Source of the DNA: Alphaproteobacteria bacterium
GTDB taxonomy: Bacteria > Pseudomonadota > Alphaproteobacteria > UBA9219 > RFNS01
DNA length: 64,000 bases
NCBI GenBank assembly: GCA_016124955.1
Contig: WGMR01000008.1
Span: 18,004-82,003, forward strand
Direction of reading: 5' to 3'
Shown: piece after piece, positions 5,025-60,975 of the stretch
Layout: every line of letters starts with the position of its first letter
Numbering within the stretch: the stretch's first letter is position 1
Translations under genes and position numbers: made by a program
Notes under the pieces: model-generated
The model's database searches: none
Seen by the model: only the letters and a program-made list of their open reading frames with translations
What the model was told of the DNA's origin: nothing

Positions 5025-5444
5025 CTATTCGCCGATTATCTTCACAAGCACGCGTTTGCGGCGCTTGCCGTCATATTCGCCGTAAAATATCTGTTCCCAT
5101 GTGCCGAAATCCAGCTTGCCGCCGGTTATGGCCACGGTCACTTCGCGGCCCATCACCTGCCGTTTCAAATGCGCGTCGGCATTATCCTCGCCGGTGTCGT
5201 TGTGGCGGTACCGGTCGTGCGGCTTTTCCGGCGCCAGTTTTTCCAGCCATTCTTCGAAGTCGTTGTGCAACCCGCGCTCGTCGTCGTTGATAAAAACGCT
5301 CGAGCTTATATGCATAGAATTGCAAAGCAGAAACCCTTCACGGATGCCGCTTTCGGCCAGCGCCTCTTCGACCTGCGGCGTAATATTGATATAGGCGCGG
5401 CGTGAAGGGATGTTGAAAACCAGTTCCTTGCGGTAAGACTTCAT
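5025..5444 (-). CDS. yjbQ: YjbQ/UPF0047 family protein (secondary thiamine-phosphate synthase-like)
   Basis: 139 aa. Family recognised from the conserved [17 protein letters not shown] region. It is the first gene of the operon that continues into the ACP, ligase, LuxE, LuxC and NeuD genes. Confidence 0.75.
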
Positions 5445-5643
5445 GGGCTTGATCCTAAAGACATTGTGCTGCCGGTCAATTTAACGCTTTTCTGCTCTTA
5501 TCAAGTTATATCAATAAGATACAATTTATCCCCAGTGCAAGAAACCCTGAATTCGCGCGGATTGCGCCCCATTCTTGCCATAAGCTGACCCTAACTTTTT
5601 GATGTAAGACGGCACACGCCGTCACAACTGCTCGGAGGAAGAT

Positions 5644-7379: not shown

Positions 7380-8527
7380 GCACGCAATTCGATCTTCTGG
7401 CATATGATGGCGATGCGCGGCGCGGTCGCGTCACCACCGCGCATGGCAGTTTTGAAACGCCATGCTTCATGGCCACGGCCACGGCCGCGAGCGTAAAGGG
7501 CATGCACTGGCGCGATGTCGCTGCCGCCGGAGCCGAACTTGCCATCTGCAACACCTATCATCTGATGCTGCGTCCCGGGGCGGAACAGATCGCGGCGCTG
7601 GGCGGGCTGCACGCCTTCACCGGCTGGCAGGGCCCGATTTTGACGGATTCCGGCGGTTTTCAGGTGATGTCGCTGACGGGGTTGCGCAAGCTGACCGAAC
7701 AGGGCGTGGTCTTTCGCTCCCACGTCGATGGCACGCAATATAACCTGACGCCCGAACGCTCGATCGAAATCCAGCATTTGCTCGATAGCGATATCGCAAT
7801 GGCGTTCGATGAATGCACGCCGTTCCCGGCTGAACCGGATGTGGCGGCGCAATCCATGCGCATGTCGATGCGCTGGGCGCAGCGTTCGCGCGATGCCTTC
7901 AAGGCGCGCACAGGCTACGGCCTGTTCGGGATCGTGCAAGGCGGCGTGCACCCGCATCTGCGGCTTGAATCGGTCGAAGCGCTGCGCAAGATCGGTTTCG
8001 ATGGTTACGGTATCGGCGGCCTTGCCGTGGGCGAAGGGCAGGAAAGCATGTTCGCCATGCTTGATGTCACCAAAGCGGTGCTCCCGGCCGGTAAGCCGCG
8101 CTATCTCATGGGGGTCGGGCGGCCCGATGATATGGTCGGTGCCGTGGCGCGTGGGGTCGATATGTTCGATTGCGTAATCCCCACGCGTTCGGGCCGTACC
8201 GGGCAAGGTTTTACAAGCCGCGGCGTGTTGAACATTCGCAACGCCCGTCATGCGGCCGATAAACGTCCGCTCGATGAAAATTGCGGCTGCCCGGCCTGCG
8301 CGAACCACAGCCGCGCCTATCTGCACCACCTGTTCCGGGCCGATGAGATGCTGGGTCCGATGCTGCTAAGCTGGCACAACATGCATTACTATCAAGATTT
8401 GATGCGCGGCATCCGGGCCGCCATTGAAGCCGGCGCCTTCGCCGCCTTCGCCGAAGCCTTTTATGCCGGCTATACGCGCGGCGATATCGATCCGCCGGAA
8501 AAGGCCGGCAAACCCGCCGCCGGATAG
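7376..8527 (+). CDS. tgt: Queuine tRNA-ribosyltransferase
   Basis: 383 aa. Tgt family with the Zn-binding CxCxxC...H motif (CGCPACANH). The queA-tgt adjacency is canonical. Confidence 0.9.
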
Positions 8528-15079: not shown

Positions 15080-15328
15080 TTTATTTTCACTATAAATCTG
15101 GTTAATAATGCTATTGTATATCATAGCAATATCAATATGTTATATTGCAATTAGGGTAAAGAAAAGCGGGCCAAAAAAAATCAAAACGAACGTTTTTATT
15201 TTCGCCTTATTTGGGCTAAACCCTAAGATTGCTTGAATATTTATATACATATTATTGGCAATAAATTACTATTTTGCGGAAAGCGAAATTGATGAGATTC
15301 CCGTTGCGCGTGCTGGGCTATAAGCGAC

Positions 15329-16423
15329 ATGGCTAGTAGTTCACCCAAGAACCTGTTTTCGGAAGACGAGAGCTATGAACTGGTCGCCATTGACCAGAAT
15401 AGCGATAAGGATTTTGTTGCCGAATTGGCGGGCGTGTACGCGGCCGGCTTCAACACGGTCAAAGAAGTCCAGCCGGAATGGGATCTGGAAGGGGCGCTCA
15501 AGCTTCTGAAGCAACGCTTGCAAAGACCTTCTGCAATCCTTGCGGTACGCGACAAAAAAACCGGCAAACTCTGCGCCGGGTTTTTTGCCGATATCATGCC
15601 CGGCAAAGACGGCATGCGCGTTTCTTCCTTCGATATCGTGGTGCTGCCCGAACATCGTAATAACCCGGAAGCAAGGTTGGGCACGAGGCTTCTGCACGAA
15701 GGCATGATCGCCGCCAATACGGCTAGCCGGCAGGAATTCGGGGAGGATTTGGCCGTCTGGGAAGGCCAGACATATAAAAAGCTTGCAGGGAAGCATCCAT
15801 ATGAATGGTGGATGGCCATGGATTACGAGCCGAAATCCCTGTTCCATATTGCCGCCGCAAGCATCACATGCCTGCCGAATTTGCCTGATGCAAATGTCGC
15901 TATCAAGCCATTGGATGTCTCAAATCACAGGGCTATGAAAAAAGTATCCGAGTTCATGGCAAGGAAATCCACCGGCCCGGACCAGGATGGACGAAACTGG
16001 TCGCCGGAACGCGCGAAAAAATATCTGGCCTATATGGCCAGATACAATCCATCGATCATCCGTGTTGCGTACGGAAAGCGCGGCGAAGTTATCGGCTGCT
16101 TTTTCGGTGACACGGTTTTGGGCCGTAGTGGTCCGCACATGACCGATACGCTGGTGTTCGCCGACAACGAAAAAATGTCGGAACAAAGCATAACCGCCTT
16201 GCTGGTCGAAGGGGTCAAGGCCGCCGATCATGCCGCGCAGGATCGTTATGGTAGCCAGCTCCGTGACGTTGAAATGCCCTACTGGTCAAGCAATCGGCAT
16301 ATATGGCCGATTCTGGAACGCGCCGGGCTGCAAGAAGACAAGGATTTCGTCCATGTCGTTGCCGATGCCGACAGGTTCAGGGATAAGATCAAGCTCAAGG
16401 CAAGCGCGCTTAATTTTGGCTAA
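15329..16423 (+). CDS. Hypothetical protein with two tandem degenerate GNAT-like (acyl-CoA N-acyltransferase fold) halves
   Basis: 364 aa. First half has a GNAT-like core (ILAVRDKKTGKLCAGFFADIM ... FDIVVLPEHRNNPEARLGTRLLHEGM). The second half has a weaker copy (GEVIGCFFGD ... TLVFADNEKMSEQSITALLVEGV). Lower GC than the host. No confident family assignment. Confidence 0.45.
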   Translation: MASSSPKNLFSEDESYELVAIDQNSDKDFVAELAGVYAAGFNTVKEVQPEWDLEGALKLLKQRLQRPSAILAVRDKKTGKLCAGFFADIMPGKDGMRVSSFDIVVLPEHRNNPEARLGTRLLHEGMIAANTASRQEFGEDLAVWEGQTYKKLAGKHPYEWWMAMDYEPKSLFHIAAASITCLPNLPDANVAIKPLDVSNHRAMKKVSEFMARKSTGPDQDGRNWSPERAKKYLAYMARYNPSIIRVAYGKRGEVIGCFFGDTVLGRSGPHMTDTLVFADNEKMSEQSITALLVEGVKAADHAAQDRYGSQLRDVEMPYWSSNRHIWPILERAGLQEDKDFVHVVADADRFRDKIKLKASALNFG

Positions 16424-16435
16424 TAAGGCCGGGCG

Positions 16436-17077
16436 CTATTTGGTCGGGACGACCGCTTCCTGCCAGAAAGCATCGAACTGTTGTATCAGCGATTTGATAA
16501 GCTGTTCCGAATATATCGAAACGATCATGACATCCTCGGCCGACGCTTTCATGTAGAAGATGACGTGATTGCCGAAAAGATAGTATGGCAGGGCGTGCGT
16601 GTGGTCTTTCCTTAGCCAGCGGTATTCACCGTATTTTGCGGCGAAGTTGGTGTCGCCATAAGGAATAAGGCACTTCGCATCGAGATTCTTGATGGTTCCC
16701 ATGCGATCAAGATGGGCTTTCGAATAGGCGGAAGTGAAGTTCTCCATCAGATTGTCGCTGAAGTTGAAGTGACGCGTAATCCCGCCTTCGGTCTTCATGG
16801 CGTCAAAGATGTCATCAAGGACTTGCTTGTACCCTTCGTGCCCGATGTAGGTTTTGACCAGCTCTTTGTGCTTTTGCACGCCTTCGTTTTCGGTAAACTC
16901 CACATCGCGTGCCCTGAAGGCCCGCACGATTGCTTCGGCGGTTGATTCCTGCGGGCGGAAGGTGCCGTGCTCAATATTCTTGATGGTTTCGGGGGATATG
17001 CTGGCGGCTTTGGCGAGATCGGCCCTCGTCCAGTCCAGCAGACCTCGTGCAGCGCGAAGTTGTGCGGGTGAGGGCAT
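16436..17077 (-). CDS. XRE-family HTH transcriptional regulator with uncharacterised ~140-aa C-terminal domain (paralog of 18291..19037)
   Basis: N-terminal LRAARGLLDWTRADLAKAASISPETIKNIEHG helix-turn-helix. The C-terminal domain carries a YGD...YGEYRW...YYLFG motif shared with the second regulator. Confidence 0.65.
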   Translation of the reverse strand: MPSPAQLRAARGLLDWTRADLAKAASISPETIKNIEHGTFRPQESTAEAIVRAFRARDVEFTENEGVQKHKELVKTYIGHEGYKQVLDDIFDAMKTEGGITRHFNFSDNLMENFTSAYSKAHLDRMGTIKNLDAKCLIPYGDTNFAAKYGEYRWLRKDHTHALPYYLFGNHVIFYMKASAEDVMIVSIYSEQLIKSLIQQFDAFWQEAVVPTK

Positions 17078-17258
17078 GGCGGTTTCTCTTGCTCTATTTG
17101 GCCTGTATCTGCTCGATTAACTACCATTTTAGGGTATTTGGCAAGTAAAGTAATAGTTTCGAGTTTTTTGCACTGCGTTAAATCATATTAACCTTAAAAA
17201 ATAATGCCTTAGATCATCTGTCTAACGCAGCATGAAACTATTTATGTTATTTAATTGA

Positions 17259-17268
17259 CCAATATTGG
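17259..17268. promoter_or_regulatory. 10-bp perfect palindrome CCAATATTGG in the divergent promoter between regulator 1 and the 120-aa gene
   Basis: Seen at 17259-17268 inside the AT-rich 268-bp gap 17078-17345. An inverted repeat CTGCGTTAAA/TCTAACGCAG also lies at 17174-17183 and 17222-17231. Confidence 0.3.
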
Positions 17269-17345
17269 CATGTATAAAGGCCATCATAGTTGGCGAATCG
17301 TTATCTATAAAAAACAGCTTGCACTTACTCAGCTATGGTTAAGAA

Positions 17346-17708
17346 ATGAATGTTAGAAGCAAAAAGATCATGAACGACAACAGCCGCAAACCAAAAACGG
17401 ATATGGACAGCGCACGCGATGCGCTGGCGCGCGACCTTGCTGATCTGAAGCAGATGAGCGATGCCGTCATGGCCGGTGAATGGGAAGGGCATAAACCGCG
17501 CGGCCTTTCAGAGTCGGAGATTATTTCCATCACCGCGCTTGTCAGCTATGTGGCGCATACACGCGGCAAGAAGGAAGACGATGTCCGCAATGGCCTGTTC
17601 GAACGTTTCGGCGTAGGCGAAATCGAAAGCCTTGCGCCTGCCGCTTATGACGATGCGGTGCGCTTCCTGGTCGATCAGGTGCCGGAAGACGCGACAGGCT
17701 CCGGCTAG
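17346..17708 (+). CDS. Hypothetical protein (120 aa)
   Basis: ORF in the islet, divergent from regulator 1. Its stop overlaps the end of small protein B by 4 nt (convergent). No recognisable domain. Confidence 0.35.
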   Translation: MNVRSKKIMNDNSRKPKTDMDSARDALARDLADLKQMSDAVMAGEWEGHKPRGLSESEIISITALVSYVAHTRGKKEDDVRNGLFERFGVGEIESLAPAAYDDAVRFLVDQVPEDATGSG

Positions 17709-17893
17709 GCTCCTTGTTGGGGGCCGGTAGCGGGCCCTGTTTCTCCTATTCTTGCAAAAGCCGTTTGCAACCGTTCTTCCTCGGTCATATGAACGGCGGC
17801 GGTATTTCCTGTGCGCGCCAGCTTCTCGATGATGACAAGCATATCGAAGGCGCCATCGGCGCCGTAACGCGCGATCATATCCGCATAACGCAT
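17705..17893 (-). CDS. Small hypothetical protein B (~63 aa), paralog of the adjacent upstream gene
   Basis: The likely start is MRYADMIARYGADGAFDMLVIIEKLARTGNTAAVHMTEEERLQTAFARIGE... It shares the EEERLQTA motif and overall pattern with protein A. It sits 7 nt downstream of A's stop. Confidence 0.4.
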   Translation of the reverse strand: MRYADMIARYGADGAFDMLVIIEKLARTGNTAAVHMTEEERLQTAFARIGETGPATGPQQGA

Positions 17894-17900
17894 GGGCTGG

Positions 17901-18104
17901 TTACCCCGCTGCATGCTTGATCGTTTCTGCCTCGTCGATCGGGCACACATCGTCAAGCCGGATCAGTGCGGTTTGCAGCCGTTCTTCTTCCCGCATTGCT
18001 AGCCGTGCGGCATCGGTCTGTATTTGCGCCATTTTCTCAAGCGACATGAGGATATCCATCGCCATGACCTTGCCGAATTTTTTACACATCTGTCCGTACG
18101 TCAT
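17901..18104 (-). CDS. Small hypothetical protein A (~67 aa), first of two tandem paralogs
   Basis: A GGAGGG Shine-Dalgarno lies 5 nt upstream of the ATG at 18104. Translation is MTYGQMCKKFGKVMAMDILMSLEKMAQIQTDAARLAMREEERLQTALIRLDD..., predicted helical. Confidence 0.45.
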   Translation of the reverse strand: MTYGQMCKKFGKVMAMDILMSLEKMAQIQTDAARLAMREEERLQTALIRLDDVCPIDEAETIKHAAG

Positions 18105-18231
18105 ATGTCCCTCCATTTTTCTATGAAGATTCAATCGCTTTAGCCTGCGTGCCACCTCTTGTCCTGTTGCCTGCGGTAACTGAAAACCGGTATTAAGATA
18201 ACATTTTGTTATTTTTATCGCTTGTTAATTC

Positions 18232-18245
18232 ACATTACGTAATGT
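18232..18245. promoter_or_regulatory. Perfect 14-bp palindrome ACATTACGTAATGT; candidate operator in the divergent promoter between small protein A and regulator 2
   Basis: Seen at 18232-18245 in the AT-rich 186-bp gap 18105-18290, about 46 nt upstream of the regulator-2 start codon. Confidence 0.4.
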
Positions 18246-18290
18246 AATAATACATGAAACGGAATTTTTGTCATCAGGAGAATTAATTTT

Positions 18291-19037
18291 ATGGAAAAAA
18301 TCGAAGGGCGGCAAATACGGGGCGCACGCGGACTGTTGGGTTGGAGCGCTGAGCATCTTGCCGAGCGAACCGGTCTGACGCGTCAGGCGATCAAACGCAT
18401 CGAGGATGGCGCGGTGCGCCCGCGCGAAGGAACACTGGCCGACATTATGCGCGTGCTTGACGAGCAGGGCATAGAGTTCAGCGGCAATTCGGGTGTGCGT
18501 TTCAAGCCGCAGGGCGTGGAAGTGCTGACAGGCGACGAAGGCCTGCGCCGGCATTTCGACAATGTCTATGAATATATGTCCAAGCACGGGGGGCTGGTTC
18601 AGCATGTCGGTATGAACGAAATGCAGTTATATAACCACATTAGGTACGAGTTCTCGAGAGTGCATGTTGGCCGTATGATGGATATTGCGGCCGAACGTGA
18701 TGATGTGAATGTACGCGCCATTCTTTGTGAGGGAGATGCATTTTTCGGCAGCGATTATACGGAGTACCGTTGGCAGGCCAGAGGCAGCTATGACGATGTC
18801 GCCTATTATCTCTATGGCGACCGGCTGGCAATCATGTCGTTCGTGGGCGAACCGTCGCCGATTGTCGTGACGCATAAAATTCCGTCCATCGCACAATCTT
18901 ATCGCAGGCAGTTTGAAGCGTTGTGGAAGGACGCCGTTGTCCCGCCCGGCTACAAATTCCGTCGCCCCCGGCCGGGGGACGAAAACAAGGGTGCCGCGCC
19001 AGTCTGGCAGACTGCGGGGGACAAAAGGAAGAGGTAA
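18291..19037 (+). CDS. XRE-family HTH transcriptional regulator with uncharacterised C-terminal domain (paralog of 16436..17077)
   Basis: N-terminal IRGARGLLGWSAEHLAERTGLTRQAIKRIEDG HTH. The C-terminal domain has FFGSDYTEYRW...AYYLYGDRLAIM, aligning with regulator 1, plus a basic C-terminal tail. It ends 1 nt before the tRNA-Gly. Confidence 0.65.
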   Translation: MEKIEGRQIRGARGLLGWSAEHLAERTGLTRQAIKRIEDGAVRPREGTLADIMRVLDEQGIEFSGNSGVRFKPQGVEVLTGDEGLRRHFDNVYEYMSKHGGLVQHVGMNEMQLYNHIRYEFSRVHVGRMMDIAAERDDVNVRAILCEGDAFFGSDYTEYRWQARGSYDDVAYYLYGDRLAIMSFVGEPSPIVVTHKIPSIAQSYRRQFEALWKDAVVPPGYKFRRPRPGDENKGAAPVWQTAGDKRKR

Positions 19038-19038
19038 T

Positions 19039-19112
19039 TGGAGCGGGTGACGGGAATCGAACCCGCGTAGCCAGCTTGGGAAGCTGGAGCTCTACCATTG
19101 AGCTACACCCGC
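19039..19112 (-). tRNA. tRNA-Gly (anticodon CCC)
   Basis: Reverse complement reads GCGGGTGTAGCTCAATGGTAGAGCTCCAGCTTCCCAAGCTGGCTACGCGGGTTCGATTCCCGTCACCCGCTCCA. Cloverleaf folds by eye: 7-bp acceptor, anticodon loop TTCCCAA, T-loop TTCGATT, encoded CCA. Confidence 0.85.
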
Positions 19113-19165: not shown

Positions 19166-19558
19166 ATGTACACCGCCACAACGCGCGATATCAAAATTAC
19201 CGTCAGGCCCGTTTACCTGGAGGATCAGTCTGCCCCGGCCGACAACCATTTCGTGTGGGCCTATCACGTGAAGATCGAGAATATGGGGCAGGAAACGGTG
19301 CAGCTTCGCAGCCGCGTATGGCGCATCACCGACAGCAAGGGCGAGGTGAACGAGGTGCGCGGCCCCGGCGTGGTGGGCGAACAGCCGACGCTCGAGCCCG
19401 GCGATTATTTCGAATATACAAGCGGCACGCCGCTCGCCACGCCTTCGGGCATTATGGGCGGCACGTACCAGATGGAAAATGAACGCGGCGAGGCGTTCGA
19501 TGTCGTCATCCCCGCCTTTTCGCTCGATAGCCCCTATCAGCTGGTGCGGTTGAACTGA
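19166..19558 (+). CDS. apaG: ApaG (DUF525) protein
   Basis: 130 aa with conserved ApaG signature ([12 protein letters not shown]...[10 protein letters not shown]...[20 protein letters not shown]). Confidence 0.85.
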
Positions 19559-22129
<2,571 letters not shown>

Positions 22130-40331: not shown

Positions 40332-41395
40332 GTCACCTTTTCGCTGCCAAGCCCGAAAATTTCACCAAATTTGCGTTCTGCCGTGATTCCCGCGTGAACC
40401 GGTAAGGTATGGTTTGTTTGCAGCCATTCCCGCACGAGCCGCCGCATGCGCTGCATGGCAAAGGGTTGCTTTTCATGCAGCGGTATTTGGCCGTGCGACC
40501 GGGCGCTGCGACACACGCGCTGGAAATAGAGATCGTTGGCCGGGTCGAAGGCATGTTGGCGCATCACGCAGAAACGTTCGTGCATATGAATGAAAAGCTC
40601 GGCCGGTATGGTGCTGCGGCCCGGTATTTGCGCGACATATTTAAAACCCGGCAGCGAAGGCCAATGAGCTTCCGGCGGCGCGCGTTCGTATTCGATATCG
40701 AGCGCGCGCAGTCCCAATACACCGGACCATGCGATCCGCTCGAAACAATCAATGCCGCTGGCATGGTGATCAAGCAGATATTCGCGCGGTGTCACCGCCA
40801 TAGGGTGCAGATGGTTTGTAAAAATGGCAAGTCGTGGCCGCGCATTCGGCTTTATATGCCCAATTCCGGCAAGGTAATTGCGTATGTCGCGCTGCGCTTC
40901 GGCATGCAGGCGATCGAACAGGCGGGGCATGCGCGAACGCGGGCGTATCTGCGCCATGGTTCCATATATCGCGGCGTCGTATTCGGTGCTGATTGCGGGC
41001 GGAATCGGCACGATCAGATAGCTCAGCATGCCAAGTTGGGTTTTTTCCGCCGGATCTTCGGCCACGAACCAGCGATAGGTAAAGGTGCCGTATCGTTCGC
41101 GCACCGCAGATTCGTTCGCGCGGCTTAGCCAGCGGTAAAAGGTTTCTTTTTCCAGCGCGCGCGCGGAATCAAACAGCTCGGTATATAATTCATATGCGCG
41201 ATCGAATTCCGGCCCGGGCCCGGTCACGGACATGAAGCGCAACTTGCTGTAATAGTTTTCATAGTCGCCGTACCGCGCCAACACGCGTGTGCGCTCCGCC
41301 GATGCCATCTCGGCGATTTGCTGTTTGCGCGCATCAATCACGGTAAGCAGACCCCGGATTGTATGCGCTTCAAGGGCGGGCGTATGGGAAAACAT
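40328..41395 (-). CDS. Conserved hypothetical protein (355 aa)
   Basis: Host-like GC and long ORF, convergent with ubiG with a 4-nt stop overlap. No family recognised. Confidence 0.45.
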   Translation of the reverse strand: MFSHTPALEAHTIRGLLTVIDARKQQIAEMASAERTRVLARYGDYENYYSKLRFMSVTGPGPEFDRAYELYTELFDSARALEKETFYRWLSRANESAVRERYGTFTYRWFVAEDPAEKTQLGMLSYLIVPIPPAISTEYDAAIYGTMAQIRPRSRMPRLFDRLHAEAQRDIRNYLAGIGHIKPNARPRLAIFTNHLHPMAVTPREYLLDHHASGIDCFERIAWSGVLGLRALDIEYERAPPEAHWPSLPGFKYVAQIPGRSTIPAELFIHMHERFCVMRQHAFDPANDLYFQRVCRSARSHGQIPLHEKQPFAMQRMRRLVREWLQTNHTLPVHAGITAERKFGEIFGLGSEKVT

Positions 41396-41553
41396 GGTGC
41401 CGTTTTCAGCGCAGGATAGTTAAGATTAAGGATTAAAAGGCTTTTTGCCAAAGAATTTAAGGTTAAGAAAGTAACTTTATACTTTTATCCACACCATGAT
41501 TCTCTGTATGTTACGCGCTTCGCCGAACCGGGCCTTATTATAAGGAATTCGCC

Positions 41554-43518
41554 ATGCGCAGCGCAGCCTATCGCCACCCCACATCTTTCGCCAAGCCGTT
41601 CCTTGGCGAAACCGCATCGAAGCTGGAAGAAGCGATCGATGCAGGCACGGGCGCGCTCATGGCCGTGCAGCATGCCGATGGTCATTTTGCCTTCGAACTT
41701 GAAGCCGATGCCACCATCCCGGCCGAATATATCCTGCTTGAACACTTCCTGAACCGCATCAACAGCCCGCTTGAAGAAAAGATGGCGGTCTATCTGCGCG
41801 GCATACAGGGCAAGCATGGCGGCTGGCCGCTGTTCCATGGCGGCGATTTCAACATCAGCGCCAGCGTGAAGGCCTATTACGCGCTGAAATGCGTGGGCGA
41901 CGATATCGATGCACCGCATATGCGCGCGGCGCGTGAAGCGATCCTGCAACATGGCGGCGCCGAAACCAGCAATGTGTTCACCCGCATTCAGCTCGCGCTG
42001 TTCGGCGCGGTGCCGTGGAAGGCCGTGCCGGTGATGCCGGTTGAAATTATGTTCCTGCCGCGCTGGTTCCCGTTCCACCTCAGCAAGGTTTCCTACTGGT
42101 CGCGCACCGTGATCGTGCCGTTGCTGGTGCTGATGGCGCGCAAGCCGCAAGCGATCAACCCCCGTGGCGTGCGCGTGGACGAACTGTTCATCACCCCGCC
42201 GGACCAGGTGCGCAACTGGCACAGCAACAACAACAAATCGGCGCTGGTGCCCGTGTTCCGTGCGATTGATGCGGTGCTGCGCTTCGCCGAACCGCTGATG
42301 CCGCGCCGTCTGCGCCAGAAGGCGATCGATAGCTGCGTCGCTTGGGTGCGCGAACGGTTGAACGGCGATGACGGCCTCGGCGCGATTTACCCCGCCATGG
42401 CCAATGCGGTGATGATGTTCCGCCTGCTTGGTTATGCCGATGACCATGAAGATGCGGCCATCGCCTGGAAAGCCGTGCAAAAGCTGATTGTGGAAGAAGA
42501 GGGCAGCGCCTATTGCCAGCCTTGCCTTTCGCCGGTGTGGGATACGGCGCTGGCTGTCCATGCGCTGCTTGAAACCGGCGGCGATGCCACGGGCGCCGCC
42601 GCGCGCGCGTGCGAATGGATGAAAGGCAAGCAGGTGACGGAATTGAAGGGCGATTGGGCCGTCATGCGCCCCGATGCCACGCCGGGCGGCTGGGCCTTCC
42701 AGTATGAAAACCCGCATTATCCCGATCTCGATGATACCGCGGTGGTCGCCATGGCGCTTGATCGCTTCGATTGGCGCACCTACCGCCCGCAGCTGACCCT
42801 GGCCGAAGAATGGGTCATGGGCATGCAATCGAAGAACGGTGGCTGGGGCGCATTCGATGCCGACAACACCTGTTATTATTTGAACCATATTCCGTTCGCC
42901 GATCACGGCGCGCTGCTCGATCCGCCCACCGCCGACGTGACCGCGCGTTGCGTGAGCATGATGGCGCAGCTCGGTTACCCCAAGGAACATCCGCAGATGG
43001 TTCGCGCGCTTGATTATCTGCGCCGCGAACAGGAACCGGAAGGCTGCTGGTTCGGCCGCTGGGGCACCAACTATATCTATGGCACATGGTCGGTGCTGTG
43101 CGCGCTGAACGCCGCCGGCGTCGCGCCAAGCGACCCGATGGTGCGCAAGGCCGTGCGCTGGCTTATCGCCAAGCAGCGGCCCGATGGCGGCTGGGGCGAA
43201 GACGGCGCCAGCTATATGCCCGGCCAGCCCAAGGGCGAAGGCAAGGCCAGCACGCCTTCGCAAACCGCATGGGCGCTGCTCGGTCTCATGGCGGCGGGCG
43301 AACGTGAAACCCCTGCGCTCGCGCGCGGCGTCGATCACCTGCTCGCTACCCAGAACGCCAAGGGCCAGTGGGATGAAAAATATTACAACGCGGTCGGGTT
43401 TCCGCGCGTCTTTTACCTAAGCTACCACGGCTACAAGGCTTTCTTCCCGCTGTGGGCGCTGGCGCGTTACCGCAACCTGCAGCAAACCAATATGCCTAAA
43501 ATCATGCACGGCATGTGA
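41554..43518 (+). CDS. shc: Squalene-hopene cyclase
   Basis: 654 aa with QW repeats and the catalytic DxDD motif (DLDDTAVV). Confidence 0.9.
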   Translation: MRSAAYRHPTSFAKPFLGETASKLEEAIDAGTGALMAVQHADGHFAFELEADATIPAEYILLEHFLNRINSPLEEKMAVYLRGIQGKHGGWPLFHGGDFNISASVKAYYALKCVGDDIDAPHMRAAREAILQHGGAETSNVFTRIQLALFGAVPWKAVPVMPVEIMFLPRWFPFHLSKVSYWSRTVIVPLLVLMARKPQAINPRGVRVDELFITPPDQVRNWHSNNNKSALVPVFRAIDAVLRFAEPLMPRRLRQKAIDSCVAWVRERLNGDDGLGAIYPAMANAVMMFRLLGYADDHEDAAIAWKAVQKLIVEEEGSAYCQPCLSPVWDTALAVHALLETGGDATGAAARACEWMKGKQVTELKGDWAVMRPDATPGGWAFQYENPHYPDLDDTAVVAMALDRFDWRTYRPQLTLAEEWVMGMQSKNGGWGAFDADNTCYYLNHIPFADHGALLDPPTADVTARCVSMMAQLGYPKEHPQMVRALDYLRREQEPEGCWFGRWGTNYIYGTWSVLCALNAAGVAPSDPMVRKAVRWLIAKQRPDGGWGEDGASYMPGQPKGEGKASTPSQTAWALLGLMAAGERETPALARGVDHLLATQNAKGQWDEKYYNAVGFPRVFYLSYHGYKAFFPLWALARYRNLQQTNMPKIMHGM

Positions 43519-44207: not shown

Positions 44208-44662
44208 CTGCCGGGGCCGCCGCTAAGGCTGGTGCCGGGTTCGCGATGCGGGCCCATATAGGGCGCGTCGGATCTCATAAAGCTCAGGCCACGTTCACCG
44301 CCAATCCCCAGCGTGCTGACCACCTTGCCGGAGACGGGGTCGAACATCGGCGCGCCGGGAATGCGGAGCAAATCGGCCTGCGGCGTTTCGGCGGTGACGC
44401 TTATGGTGGTAGCGGTCGCTTCTTGTCTCGGCGGCAGCGGCGCGGCGCGCACGGTATCGGGTGGCAGGGTCAGTTCGCTCCCCGCCCTGCGGACCGGGGC
44501 AGTGGTATCATGGCGCGCAGGCCTCATATCGCCCAAGAAGGCGAAGGTAAAAGCAAAGGCGGCCAGCCATGCGCCCGACGAACGCCAGAAAGGCTTGTTG
44601 CTGGCTCCGGTGACAATCACAGGCTCCATAACGGGTTGGTTTGCGGGTCTCATGGGCAACAA
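44204..44662 (-). CDS. Hypothetical membrane-anchored protein (152 aa)
   Basis: Single TM helix (SGAWLAAFAFTFAFLG), Pro-rich linker, C-terminal FDPVSGKVVSTLGIGGERGLSFMRSDAPY. Convergent 4-nt overlap with hpnG. Confidence 0.3.
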   Translation of the reverse strand: MLPMRPANQPVMEPVIVTGASNKPFWRSSGAWLAAFAFTFAFLGDMRPARHDTTAPVRRAGSELTLPPDTVRAAPLPPRQEATATTISVTAETPQADLLRIPGAPMFDPVSGKVVSTLGIGGERGLSFMRSDAPYMGPHREPGTSLSGGPGS

Positions 44663-44836
44663 AAATCCTTGTTTTTAATTACGCTGCAAGTCTGGAATGC
44701 GCGCAATATAGCCAATCGTGCCGGTTTTTCGACCATAAAAAGGTCTTTACCATTATTTTTAAGTTTATATAAAACAAACACTTGCCGGAACGGCTGCATG
44801 GGGTGGCTCGTGCGGCCCCGAAAGGACCGCTCCCGT

Positions 44837-49338: not shown

Positions 49339-49855
49339 CCATCAATCCCTTTTCTAAAATCTTTGCAGGCCCGGAACTTAAAGGAAGCAGGCTTGTAAGT
49401 AAACGAAAACTGTTGCGCGTGCCCATAGCAAAAACCATAATTTTCCAATGCGTTAGGCTGGTCCGCGCGGCTCATGCATCGGGTTTTCGGGTGATTCGTT
49501 TTCTGTTTTGCGGAGGCAAACGGTCCGCTGCCGGGCACAATGAAACCATGTTTGGATCGTATCGATAACGTCATGGACGGACTCAAAATTGCCCACAAGG
49601 GTATTTTTTAGCTGCTACGATCAATATCTAGGTGCCTGGTCAAAAGACGGCCCGTTTTTAACAAAAAAGCAATAAAATTATCAGGTCCTACAGGTAGTTT
49701 TCTAATAACAAAATCAACAACTAACTGAAATTAACCGGGCCTTTGGATAGGGTGTTAAGGCCTGTGTTTGAAAGGTGACAGCGAGCCGAGATGTGGTAGC
49801 ATCCTCGGTCCTAAGATCAATATCTGGTACAAATATCCCCATTTCTCAGTTATAG

Positions 49856-60548: not shown

Positions 60549-60975
60549 GGGGGCCGTTTATACCATCCTGAAACCGGTGGGCTATCGAGATTTAGGCCAC
60601 GTTGTAATTCTGCAACAAGGCGTGCCAGGCGGGCAGGGCGGCTGACAAAAAGAATCCGGATCAATGGCTTAGCCATGGGCTGTTTTTCGTGTCCCTGAAA
60701 CCGTTCCGGACCCGGTTCAAAAAACCATGCTTTTCCACACGAATATAAATCGCTTACCCATTGATTCAAATAATAAATACATTGCCATGGCAAAGATATC
60801 CACAGACAATAGCCAAAGCATCATTCTGCCACAAAAAACACCGGTAAATTAGGTTAACGAAATCTCAATCGGTGGGGTCTTAACTGATGAATTGGGCATC
60901 CAGCGTTTGGCTCAAAGCGCTTTGTCCGTCCGTGACTTACGGGTCATGCGGCTAGCTGTATTGGGGGATACAAAA

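Follow-up and report, generated by a model that had tools for sequence, protein, structure and literature searches.

A probable pair of chromosomal regulatory modules between ugd and tRNA-Gly(CCC)

The AT-rich stretch separating ugd from a tRNA-Gly(CCC) gene is, in the explanation we somewhat favour, a chromosomal pair of lineage-specific regulatory modules of uncultured Micavibrio-like alphaproteobacteria, rather than an imported island, and would serve as autoregulated switches for enzymes. None of its six genes (ORF1, XRE213, ORF3, ORF4, ORF5 and XRE248) has a housekeeping identity, as an earlier note on this DNA first described, and the gene map agrees with the layout given there, in which two modules, each a regulator with a divergent small gene, face each other. 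The evidence also fits that note's view of a regulatory cassette, of the repressor/partner or signalling kind, and not a metabolic one. Positions are those of the window, the whole 64-kb stretch of DNA analysed.

Gene content of the two modules

The first module lies next to ugd. A 249-bp intergenic region (15080–15328, 32% GC) runs from the ugd stop to the start of ORF1 and is presumed from its position to be the ORF1 promoter region; a palindrome search found the short palindromes CAATATGTTATATTG (15133–15147), AAAACGAACGTTTT (15183–15196) and TTATTGGCAATAA (15252–15264) within it. ORF1 (15329–16423, forward strand, 364 aa), which has no match in Pfam, belongs to a small, fast-evolving family, and structure bore out its earlier designation as a tandem GNAT protein. 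It converges on XRE213 (16436–17077, reverse strand), with the two stop codons 12 bp apart; the genes do not form an operon, so their arrangement does not imply that XRE213 controls ORF1. XRE213 joins an N-terminal XRE helix-turn-helix (residues ~4–55) to a C-terminal PLD/TrmB-like alpha/beta domain, and shares a divergent control region of 268 bp (17078–17345, 35% GC) with ORF3.

ORF3 (17346–17708, forward strand) encodes 120 aa, or 112 aa from the NCBI start at 17370. Its C-terminal ~60 aa are conserved, with the pattern L-x-AL-x-YVA...RF-V...L-x-x-x-YD-x-A-x-x-YLVD. A search of 5.8 billion proteins returned 64 matches, all of 50–131 aa and none with a Pfam domain, and found no link to phage proteins. 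Matches of the ORF3 family to Pfam ORF6C (8 of 32 members) and to the anti-repressor PHROGs 463 and 245 were weak and sub-threshold, with a best E of 1e-3 in each case. ORF3 is probably a small partner protein, for which these sub-threshold matches would suggest an anti-repressor role.

The second module reaches the tRNA gene. ORF5 (17901–18104, reverse strand) and ORF4 (17705–17893, reverse strand) form a tandem in which ORF4 is the second gene, its stop sharing 4 bp with that of ORF3. They probably encode 67 and 62 aa, with mechanical ORFs extending to 18155 (84 aa) and 17956 (83 aa), respectively: the ORF5 ATG at 18104 has a GGAGGG motif 5 nt ahead of it, and the ORF4 ATG lies 7 nt past the ORF5 stop, the conserved core being set by family alignment. 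At 39% identity (E 5e-13) the two are paralogs, in keeping with the tandem pair of ~65 aa noticed earlier. Their family (ORF45) has no Pfam match, and hhalign found no relationship to the ORF3 family (probability 0.6%).

ORF5 diverges from XRE248 (18291–19037, forward strand) across a 135-bp control region (18156–18290, 31% GC) holding the palindromes ATAACATTTTGTTAT (18198–18212) and ACATTACGTAATGT (18232–18245), the first of which, a 15-mer, recurs unchanged in the matching intergenic region of locus L068. Promoter-like hexamers occur there on both strands, in numbers not above those of shuffled sequence. XRE248 shares the two-domain architecture of XRE213, adds a basic C-terminal tail, and is 30% identical to it across the full length (E 3e-39), which confirms that the two regulators on opposite strands are paralogs. 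Its stop lies 2 bp from the 3′ end of tRNA-Gly(CCC) (19039–19112, reverse strand; ARAGORN and Rfam, 72 bits), and no enzyme gene follows it. Orthologs at 53–55% identity occur in L044, L071 and L077, and ORF45-family members adjoin XRE248 orthologs in the same position in L044, L071 and L081. An EgtD-like Methyltransf_33 gene lies 3′ of the XRE gene in L044 and in the more distant paralogs L081, L068 and L043, and a small, weakly matching methyltransferase gene lies 3′ of the ortholog in L077.

The regulator family and its candidate operator

The regulators XRE213 and XRE248 are members of an uncharacterised family that combines the XRE helix-turn-helix with a PLD/TrmB-like domain that is catalytically dead, none of the HKD catalytic residues being conserved. 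We found 294 full-length homologs of ~215–225 aa, mainly from alphaproteobacterial MAGs, and 425 matches were confirmed in a genome scan, from MAGs carrying the labels Micavibrio sp., 'Bdellovibrionales', Rhodospirillaceae and Alphaproteobacteria. Many genomes carry several family loci, with up to ~22 copies per genome in Micavibrio-like MAGs. In most loci the XRE gene has an ORF3-like gene upstream, transcribed away from it, and the usual module comprises this small gene, a TACC-N7-GGTA palindrome between the two, and a variable group-transfer enzyme gene on the 3′ side. In that position, 57 distinct ORFs of at least 150 aa share the strand of the XRE gene and begin within ~150 bp of it; Pfam matches among the members scanned were to Methyltransf_33 (11), Acetyltransf_1 (10), class I methyltransferases (5), LPG_synthase_C (5) and others, and the encoded enzymes include a PLP-dependent decarboxylase, an aminotransferase, dehydrogenases and tandem GNATs of 200–450 aa. 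Three other genomes (L007, L009 and L117) have an ORF1-family gene after an XRE213 ortholog.

A candidate operator, TACCATTTTAGGGTA (17122–17136), precedes the XRE213 start codon by 45 bp. It has the palindromic form TACC-N7-GGTA, which the window contains in exact form nowhere else. Exact matches occur in 22 of 57 homologous divergent intergenic regions (mean 37% GC), against a shuffle mean of 0.2, and matches with at most one mismatch in 43 of the 57, against 4.9. Across 1.07 Mb of loci there are 33 exact sites, of which 24 fall inside 17 kb of module intergenic regions, an enrichment of ~100-fold. The motif usually lies 50–120 bp upstream of the XRE start and is often duplicated ~21 bp apart. 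The intergenic region between ORF5 and XRE248 has no TACC-N7-GGTA site; this, together with the lack of an enzyme gene beside XRE248, counts against our preferred explanation.

Composition, synteny and rival readings

The compositional contrast with the flanks is sharp, as the earlier note had it. Positions 15080–19038 have 50.9% GC, compared with 60.2–60.7% in the flanks and 59.7% in the window, and are the minimum among all its 4-kb windows (mean 59.6%, s.d. 2.6). Coding sequences in the islet have 51–57% GC, with GC3 of 59–66% versus 69–78% in flanking genes, and the intergenic regions have 32.1% (15080–15328), 34.7% (17078–17345) and 31.1% (18156–18290), the deepest of eight stretches below 40% GC in the window. 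A CAI-like index is 0.40–0.64 for islet genes versus ~0.59–0.68 for most flanking comparison ORFs (putative genes), a few of which are lower; both calculations the earlier note proposed, windowed GC and codon adaptation, place the islet below its flanks. Its count of 13 G/C in 15081–15140 was exact (21.7%), and its estimates by eye were off: the host has ~60% GC, not 65–70%, and the intergenic regions 31–35%, not 20–30%. Low GC is common to the modules. GC was lower than in the flanks in 57 of 67 module loci, by 5 points on average, with hosts of 46–61% GC, and the deficit was 5–10 points in most loci examined. As a module trait across hosts of differing GC, it does not date an import into the present genome; exchange among related bacteria could be an alternative source of this uniformity.

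Several related genomes (apaG 79–82%, gyrB 72–78% and ugd 69% identical) have all or part of the order apaG / tRNA-Gly(CCC) / ORF3-like gene / XRE gene / enzyme gene / ugd. The apaG-side portion, through the XRE gene, is present in L013, L035, L030 and L001; of these, L013 and L035 have tRNA-Gly(CCC) separating apaG from the ORF3-like gene, and L001 and L030 have it beside apaG. The portion from the XRE gene to ugd is present in L003–5, L016 and L030, and dut lies nearby in L015. The tRNA gene does not mark the edge of an island but accompanies the module as a conserved neighbour. Module location does vary, with copies beside rimP-nusA in L117 and ftsK in L003, and a type-B cluster adjoins primase and DNA methylase genes in L086, L089 and L043, so some copies may travel on mobile elements. 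The earlier note held that the same genes at this locus throughout the family, with host-like composition, would be ancestral; this largely applies, in that the locus is shared, although composition is host-like nowhere.

An acquired genomic islet, or a decayed island remnant, inserted at tRNA-Gly(CCC) was the earlier proposal for the whole 4 kb, and we now consider it unlikely. Islet GC 9 points under the flanks, reduced codon adaptation and adjacency to the tRNA 3′ end all speak for it, as does the related cluster beside primase and methylase on IMG/VR contigs. Comparison of the ugd/tRNA-Gly/apaG/gyrB junction nevertheless places the ORF3/XRE213(/enzyme) core at the apaG/tRNA-Gly-to-ugd position in several relatives, and the low GC holds in most module loci irrespective of host GC. 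Pfam, NCBIfam and PHROGs gave no integrase or transposase match, and a search allowing up to 3 mismatches did not find the tRNA 3′ end a second time, which upholds the earlier report that integrase, transposase and att repeat are absent; nor was there a plasmid match for the DNA, or a phage protein match for the XRE213 C-terminal domain or ORF3. The idea of a tRNA insertion hotspot fails for most of the 4 kb and possibly stands for XRE248–ORF5–ORF4, which occupies 1.3 kb here in a slot that is empty, at 18–29 bp, in L013 and L035 and filled by other genes in L030 and L001. Local gain may be limited to this tRNA-proximal piece.

Other readings take the genes for a different kind of system. Small-molecule signalling cassettes resembling quorum sensing, in which the enzyme makes an amino-acid-derived signal, the pseudo-PLD domain senses it and paralogs form parallel channels, would suit the pairing of a regulator whose effector-type domain is TrmB-like with variable amine or amino-acid enzymes (GNAT, EgtD-like methyltransferase, LPG_synthase_C, PLP-dependent decarboxylase, aminotransferase), and expansion to ~22 copies per genome; this is doubtful, as nothing points to a ligand pocket, export or a diffusible product, the model does not account for the conserved small partner, XRE248 has no enzyme gene and XRE213 is not operonic with one. 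Type II toxin–antitoxin pairs, with an XRE antitoxin and a downstream GNAT or other enzyme as toxin, as in TacAT, AtaRT and KacAT, are quite unlikely. GNAT toxins are known, and the XRE-then-enzyme order, the presumably autoregulatory palindrome, the multiple copies and weak helix-turn-helix matches to HipB, MqsA and spr1629 antitoxin models all lean that way, but these matches are confined to the helix-turn-helix and far under curated cut-offs, and PADLOC matches are likewise at that level only. Moreover, the enzymes are tandem GNATs of 200–450 aa, EgtD-like methyltransferases, dehydrogenases and aminotransferases, as against single-domain GNAT toxins of ~170 aa; ORF1 runs towards XRE213 from an upstream region of its own, no enzyme follows XRE248, and a conserved third gene, small and divergent, is foreign to toxin–antitoxin architecture. 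A CI/Cro-type immunity region that survived phage decay is very improbable. Divergent pairs of a helix-turn-helix regulator and a small gene around palindromic operators do look like immunity regions, the XRE helix-turn-helix matches phage repressor PHROGs, and ORF3 has its weak ORF6C and anti-repressor similarities. Against this, the regulators carry a PLD/TrmB-like C-terminal domain and no S24 peptidase or ImmA-type domain; tblastn of that domain and ORF3 against 50,697 phage genomes gave no match, no viral protein in BFVD has both domains, and only 2 of 31 confirmed IMG/VR matches were full length. Phage structural and replication genes are absent nearby and housekeeping synteny is kept, and the CI/Cro homologs that the earlier note had considered were not found beyond the generic helix-turn-helix.

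Proposed mechanism and known systems

The likeliest function of the modules, we infer, is that of autoregulated repressor/partner switches over small-molecule-modifying enzymes. A dimer of the XRE-type regulator would bind the 15-bp TACC-N7-GGTA site in the AT-rich region shared with the divergent small gene, and would thereby control, presumably by repression, both its own promoter and the small gene's. The product of the small gene, of the ORF3 or ORF4/ORF5 type, may target the pseudo-PLD domain, either as a partner or as an anti-repressor; another possibility is that this domain senses a small molecule. The regulated output would be the adjacent group-transfer enzyme, here the tandem GNAT ORF1 and, in paralogous modules, a methyltransferase (EgtD-like or other) or a further GNAT, among others. 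Within this scheme, ORF1, XRE213 and ORF3 would be the syntenic copy, positioned as in relatives between tRNA-Gly/apaG and ugd, with ORF1 apparently inverted in the present genome and preceded by its own upstream region, and XRE248, ORF5 and ORF4 probably an incomplete copy of another type of module, without the usual enzyme gene, in a variable slot by the tRNA.

Several known systems come close to parts of this design. Actinobacterial XRE/DUF397 pairs are likewise lineage-specific and highly multiplied, and combine an XRE protein bearing a C-terminal domain with a partner of ~60–100 aa; they differ in that C-terminal domain, in a small gene that is downstream instead of divergent, and in having no known associated enzyme gene. 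The archaeal regulators TrmB and TrmBL2 have a winged-helix DNA-binding domain and coiled coil where the family has an XRE helix-turn-helix, sequence identity is 7–13%, and the Pfam models TrmB and Regulator_TrmB gave no match to the family. ORF1 is 9–14% identical to tandem-GNAT enzymes (N-myristoyltransferase, clavulanate ORF14 and MshD), and its motif is altered (HRNNPEARLGT). Phage CI/Cro and repressor/anti-repressor switches resemble the modules in pairing a divergent helix-turn-helix repressor and small protein around AT-rich palindromic operators, and in the weak likeness of the ORF3 family to the ORF6C domain and anti-repressor PHROGs; the modules, without an S24/ImmA cleavage domain, nearby phage genes or phage-genome matches, sit instead in a housekeeping neighbourhood, in multiple copies per genome and with a downstream enzyme gene. 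Restriction–modification controller (C) proteins such as C.Kpn2I and C.AhdI are small dimeric XRE-type regulators with palindromic sites; the family is likewise XRE-type and probably dimeric, and its candidate sites, also palindromic, are often paired ~two helical turns apart in the regulator's own upstream region. C proteins, however, are ~80–100 aa, consist of the helix-turn-helix only and control a restriction–modification operon, whereas the family lies away from endonuclease and methylase genes, except for a C5 methylase near L086 and L043, and adds a pseudo-PLD domain of 150 aa and a conserved divergent small partner gene.

Composition and gene content of the region

The AT-rich region between ugd and tRNA-Gly(CCC) (15080–19038) has a GC content of 50.9%, the lowest among all 4-kb windows (mean 59.6%, s.d. 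2.6) and 9 points beneath its flanks. Windowed GC thus bears out a contrast that an earlier note on this DNA had drawn by eye, and its count of 13 G/C at 15081–15140 is exact. Its estimates of 65–70% GC for the host and 20–30% for the spacers were too extreme, as the window measures 59.7% overall and the three intergenic regions 32%, 35% and 31% (15080–15328, 17078–17345 and 18156–18290, respectively). The 64-kb window has eight stretches of under 40% GC, among which these spacers dip lowest. The five others (5381–5530, 41361–41560, 44631–44800, 49561–49780 and 60701–60910, in 150-bp windows) are presumably ordinary intergenic regions. The six coding sequences have 51–57% GC, with GC3 values of 59–66% versus 69–78% in ugd, dut, apaG and gyrB.

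The gene content is as the earlier note described it. The proteins (MBI1273976–82) come from an uncultured ‘Alphaproteobacteria bacterium’ MAG, on a 213-kb contig. Module 1 comprises ORF1 (15329–16423, +), which encodes 364 aa, the regulator gene XRE213 (16436–17077, −) and the small gene ORF3 (17346–17708, +), divergent from XRE213. Module 2 comprises the regulator gene XRE248 (18291–19037, +) and the small genes ORF5 (17901–18104, −), divergent from XRE248, and ORF4 (17705–17893, −). The two XRE regulators had been called paralogous and are 30% identical over their full length; the two ~65-aa ORFs, likewise described as tandem paralogs, are 39% identical and do form a tandem pair.

Regulators, partner genes, enzymes and candidate operators

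Both regulators qualify as XRE (Cro/C1-type) helix-turn-helix (HTH) proteins, with scores over the curated thresholds (XRE213, 35.5 bits on HTH_3, cut-off 23; XRE248, 37.7 bits on HTH_31, cut-off 27). Fold comparison matches the HTH to C.Kpn2I, P22 c2 and the 434 repressor. An AlphaFold model of XRE213, obtained with a 31-member alignment (pLDDT 91), gives the C-terminal domain a PLD alpha/beta fold, PLD/TrmB-like by fold comparison. Across the 31 aligned members the HxK(x)4D catalytic motif is not conserved and the C-terminal domain has no invariant or near-invariant His, Lys or Asp column, so it is a pseudo-enzyme domain; its conserved residues are M126, Y149, Y152, P164, Y166, S190, F201 and W205. 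Pfam and NCBIfam matches of XRE213 are confined to the HTH, and the XRE proteins have no Pfam match to TrmB or Regulator_TrmB (the winged-helix DNA-binding and regulator domains of TrmB) or to Peptidase_S24, the C-terminal autopeptidase of phage CI-type repressors. XRE213 has 294 full-length homologs of ~215–225 aa, nearly all from alphaproteobacterial MAGs, and screening a single genome for each species confirmed at least 425 relatives of the XRE protein, in MAGs labelled, among the matches listed, Alphaproteobacteria, ‘Bdellovibrionales’, Rhodospirillaceae or Micavibrio sp.

Mapping HMMs of four islet families onto 85 loci revealed two recurrent layouts. Type A reads ORF3-like< XRE> enzyme>, its XRE genes being XRE213 orthologs (38–57% identity). 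Type B reads (NUDIX<) XRE< ORF3-like< ORF3-like or ORF4/5-like< XRE> methyltransferase> and includes XRE248 orthologs (53–55% identity in L044, L071 and L077); some of its clusters have an ORF4/5-like gene where the window has ORF5. Type-B clusters occur at L077, L080, L063, L057, L072, L069, L066, L064, L043, L078 and L073; the NUDIX gene is 46–73% identical among 11 loci, and the methyltransferase is EgtD-like where checked. Both types are present together in at least 14 MAGs, and MAG STD2_238 alone has ~22 XRE/pseudo-PLD paralogs over five loci (L012, L043, L053, L063 and L064); one array (L053:7222–15801, JAQUYN010000002) contains 11 of these. A CHC2 zinc-finger/DUF7146 primase and a C5 cytosine DNA methylase neighbour one type-B cluster (L086:8787–10890, L043:10928–12626), which is found in one MAG (L043) and on two IMG/VR ‘viral’ contigs of identical sequence (L086 and L089); given this linkage, mobile elements may carry some copies.

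The divergent partners fall into two families that are unrelated by hhalign (probability 0.6%). The ORF3 family comprises proteins of 50–131 aa with a conserved C-terminal stretch of ~60 residues and, in 64 database matches, no Pfam domain. ORF6C (PF10552) was found neither in ORF3 nor in any of these 64 homologs, and its matches to 8 of 32 family members are weak (best E 1e-3, under the Pfam gathering threshold). Among PHROGs, phrog_6521 is the commonest (10 members, best E 2.9e-5, annotated ‘membrane protein’), followed by phrog_5825 (9 members, without annotation), and the anti-repressor families 463 and 245 weakly match 3 and 1 members, respectively; we treat these similarities as leads only. 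A relationship of the ORF3 family to the XRE HTH is unsupported (probability 4%). ORF4 and ORF5 form a separate small family without known relatives. In their likely true forms, ORF5 has 67 aa, starting from the ATG at 18104 with GGAGGG 5 nt before it, and ORF4 has 62 aa, starting in tandem at an ATG 7 nt past the ORF5 stop.

The gene immediately 3′ of XRE varies in identity but nearly always encodes an enzyme of group transfer or amino-acid modification: Methyltransf_33 (EgtD-like; 11 members), Acetyltransf_1 (10 members), class I methyltransferases (5 members), LPG_synthase_C (5 members), and 2-hydroxyacid dehydrogenases, a PLP-dependent decarboxylase, an aminotransferase, an asparagine synthase and a formyltransferase. 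ORF1 has two consecutive GNAT folds, fitting the tandem-GNAT subgroup of acyltransferases. It seemed an orphan in a word-indexed search, and an exhaustive search found 17 remote homologs (~20–30% identity). Their family consensus YRxxGLGxxL fits the acyl-CoA motif (R/Q-x-x-G-x-G/A); the corresponding sequence of ORF1, HRNNPEARLGTRL, contains an insertion and has Arg in place of Gly. Genes of the ORF1 family lie directly 3′ of XRE213 orthologs in L007, L009 and L117, and the enzymes 3′ of XRE in L016 and L003 are unrelated to it outside the GNAT motif region. A 42-aa hydrophobic ORF (MLLYIIAISICYIAIRVKK...; 15108–15236, +) within the AT-rich spacer 5′ of ORF1 could be spurious or a small membrane peptide.

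Counting k-mers over 57 non-redundant divergent spacers yielded the palindrome TACC-N7-GGTA, present exactly in 22 spacers (shuffle mean 0.2) and with at most one mismatch in 43 (shuffle mean 4.9). It is conserved in position as well as sequence, usually lying 50–120 bp 5′ of the XRE start, and the 17 kb of spacers contain 24 of the 33 exact matches present across 1.07 Mb of locus sequence; in type-B spacers it is often paired, ~21 bp apart. A 15-bp site with ~11 bp between half-site centres suits an HTH dimer, a pattern known from 434-type operators and C-boxes. The sole exact site in the 64 kb is TACCATTTTAGGGTA at 17122–17136, 45 bp 5′ of XRE213. One-mismatch sites number nine window-wide, within chance expectation (6.1 ± 2.4), and include TAACCACATTAGGTA at 18632–18646, where the coding sequence of XRE248 is locally AT-rich. 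The XRE248/ORF5 spacer has no TACC-N7-GGTA site and contains two perfect palindromes, ATAACATTTTGTTAT and ACATTACGTAATGT. The 15-bp ATAACATTTTGTTAT (18198–18212) recurs identically in the corresponding L068 spacer (7700–7985), which belongs to a 38%-identical XRE248 paralog of Micavibrio sp. IMS_BF, and may be a second operator type. Recognition-helix sequence showed no clear covariation with operator presence. Scans for sigma-70 promoters and terminators scored no more often than on shuffled sequence and are given no weight here, and the AT-rich spacers hold no Rfam family besides the tRNA.

Chromosomal setting and origin

On the opposite strand the window reads apaG< tRNA-Gly> XRE248< ORF5> ORF4> ORF3< XRE213> ORF1< ugd<. 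We compared this junction with genomes from the XRE-family scan, a sample made up of genomes that carry the module. L013 (gyrB ... apaG< tRNA-Gly(CCC)> ORF3-like< XRE>) has gyrB 78% and apaG 81% identical to the window; L035 (apaG< tRNA-Gly> ORF3-like< XRE> GNAT>), apaG 81%; L030 (apaG< tRNA-Gly> acyltransferase> ORF3-like< XRE> methyltransferase> ... ORF3-like< XRE> ugd<), apaG 80% and ugd 69%; L016 (apaG< ORF3-like< XRE> enzyme> ugd<), apaG 79% and ugd 69%; L001 (gyrB ... tRNA-Gly> apaG> SBP< ORF3-like< XRE> GNAT>), gyrB 72% and apaG 82%; and L003–5 (XRE> GNAT> ugd<), ugd 69%. These shared gene orders show the ORF3/XRE213 core and its housekeeping flanks to be syntenic with relatives, so that the chromosomal neighbourhood of the XRE213 copy is conserved. 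The position is not universal, as the XRE/ORF1-like pair of L117 adjoins rimP-nusA.

The window differs from its relatives in that ORF1 is inverted, with its own 249-bp AT-rich upstream region, and in that a 1.33-kb XRE248-ORF5-ORF4 block occupies the slot next to tRNA-Gly. That slot, by tRNA-Gly/apaG, is empty in L013 (7310–7328) and L035 (3742–3771), where it measures 18–29 bp, and holds an Acyl_transf_3 gene in L030 (5735–7313) and an SBP_bac_3 gene in L001 (4448–5444). Beyond it, apaG (+) and gyrB (−) are convergent in the window without a spacer between their stop codons (19558–19559); they lie as much as 3.7 kb apart in L001, L013 and L020 and run in the same direction in L001. These differences in spacing and orientation indicate a rearranged neighbourhood.

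Low GC likewise extends to the relatives. In 57 of the 67 loci, the module has a lower GC content than the remaining locus sequence (mean −5 points; by >3 points in 47 loci), and the divergent XRE/small-gene spacers average 37% GC. Since the module is low in hosts whose flanks range from 46% to 61% GC, the offset cannot be used to date an arrival in this genome. Low GC is a property of the gene family and its control regions and no sign of recent import here; its cause may be AT-rich regulatory DNA combined with weak selection on codons, or modules exchanged over the long term among members of the clade.

The earlier note had read the region as a decayed island remnant or as acquired by a non-canonical route, and this headline claim, of a foreign islet at a tRNA, is largely refuted. 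The core, ORF3-like/XRE(/enzyme), lies at this junction, bounded by apaG/tRNA-Gly and/or ugd, in L001, L013, L016, L030 and L035, so absence of the whole islet, which the note had proposed to look for in related genomes, was not seen; only the XRE248-ORF5-ORF4 piece is missing at these junctions. The note was right that the region lacks an integrase, a transposase and att repeats: Pfam, NCBIfam and PHROGs identify no integrase, recombinase or transposase among the six proteins, the 20-nt tRNA 3′ end occurs once in 64 kb even at ≤3 mismatches, and no long direct or inverted repeats beyond chance-level matches bound the region. Set against these absences, the synteny of the core and the family-wide low GC, a genomic island is improbable and would apply mostly to the 1.3-kb piece. 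Low GC by a tRNA is here a false island signal, and relatives reveal a conserved, lineage-specific regulatory locus. We also rejected a phage remnant, as the regulators have no S24 or ImmA domain; the XRE213 C-terminal domain and ORF3 have no tblastn match in 50,697 INPHARED phage records, BFVD contains no viral protein matching both regulator domains, and IMG/VR has a full-length family member on only two contigs of the same sequence. A plasmid origin was rejected, the islet DNA having no PLSDB match.

A type II toxin–antitoxin system would pair a GNAT toxin with an HTH/RHH antitoxin, and homologous modules elsewhere do place XRE and enzyme in tandem. Against this reading, the layout in the window is not operonic, as XRE213 and ORF1 converge and no gene follows XRE248. 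Antitoxin similarities are at the HTH level only, with 21.7–23.1 bits for HipB-type models (cut-off 71.65) and 22.7 for MqsA (cut-off 61.8), PADLOC matches are HTH-only, and the enzymes are large and diverse.

A possible regulatory switch and its relation to known systems

The modules combine a two-domain regulator family with a conserved divergent partner gene and a variable enzyme gene 3′. We modestly favour a general model in which they work as a regulator/partner/operator switch with an enzyme output. A regulator dimer would bind TACC-N7-GGTA and so autoregulate the divergent promoters, a small protein or small molecule would switch the regulator through its pseudo-PLD domain, and the enzyme would be the regulated output. 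A version in which the modules form signalling cassettes is unlikely. Within the window, ORF1 may be a putative in-trans target of module 1 through the spacer at 15080–15328, and module 2 is a reduced copy without an enzyme gene.

More speculatively, and with rather low probability, the modules could be an undescribed class of regulatory switch, confined to and greatly multiplied in Micavibrio-like alphaproteobacteria. The dead PLD domain would then serve as a sensor or partner-binding module, alongside a dedicated small partner, a shared TACC-N7-GGTA operator and, as output, an interchangeable enzyme that modifies amino acids; the paralogs would form parallel channels for signalling or for sensing prey in predatory or epibiotic hosts, and the window copy would be the conserved ‘founder’ beside tRNA-Gly.

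The islet claim thus gives way to a coherent and so far unstudied regulatory system. Its XRE/pseudo-PLD proteins rank with the most highly multiplied regulators of a little-known bacterial group to which Micavibrio-like organisms belong, and the conserved operator, partner gene and enzyme output make the switch model concrete and testable. The literature searched contained no description of XRE-plus-pseudo-PLD regulators, ORF3-like partners or ORF4/5-type proteins, whose distinctive parts have no Pfam family, and Pfam, NCBIfam, PHROGs and PADLOC do not cover the fusion, the small partners, the shared operator or the large lineage-specific expansion. Taken singly, the components are familiar: an XRE HTH, a tandem GNAT and a PLD-like pseudo-enzyme domain as in the TrmB regulators, a domain that the two families have in common at the fold level only.
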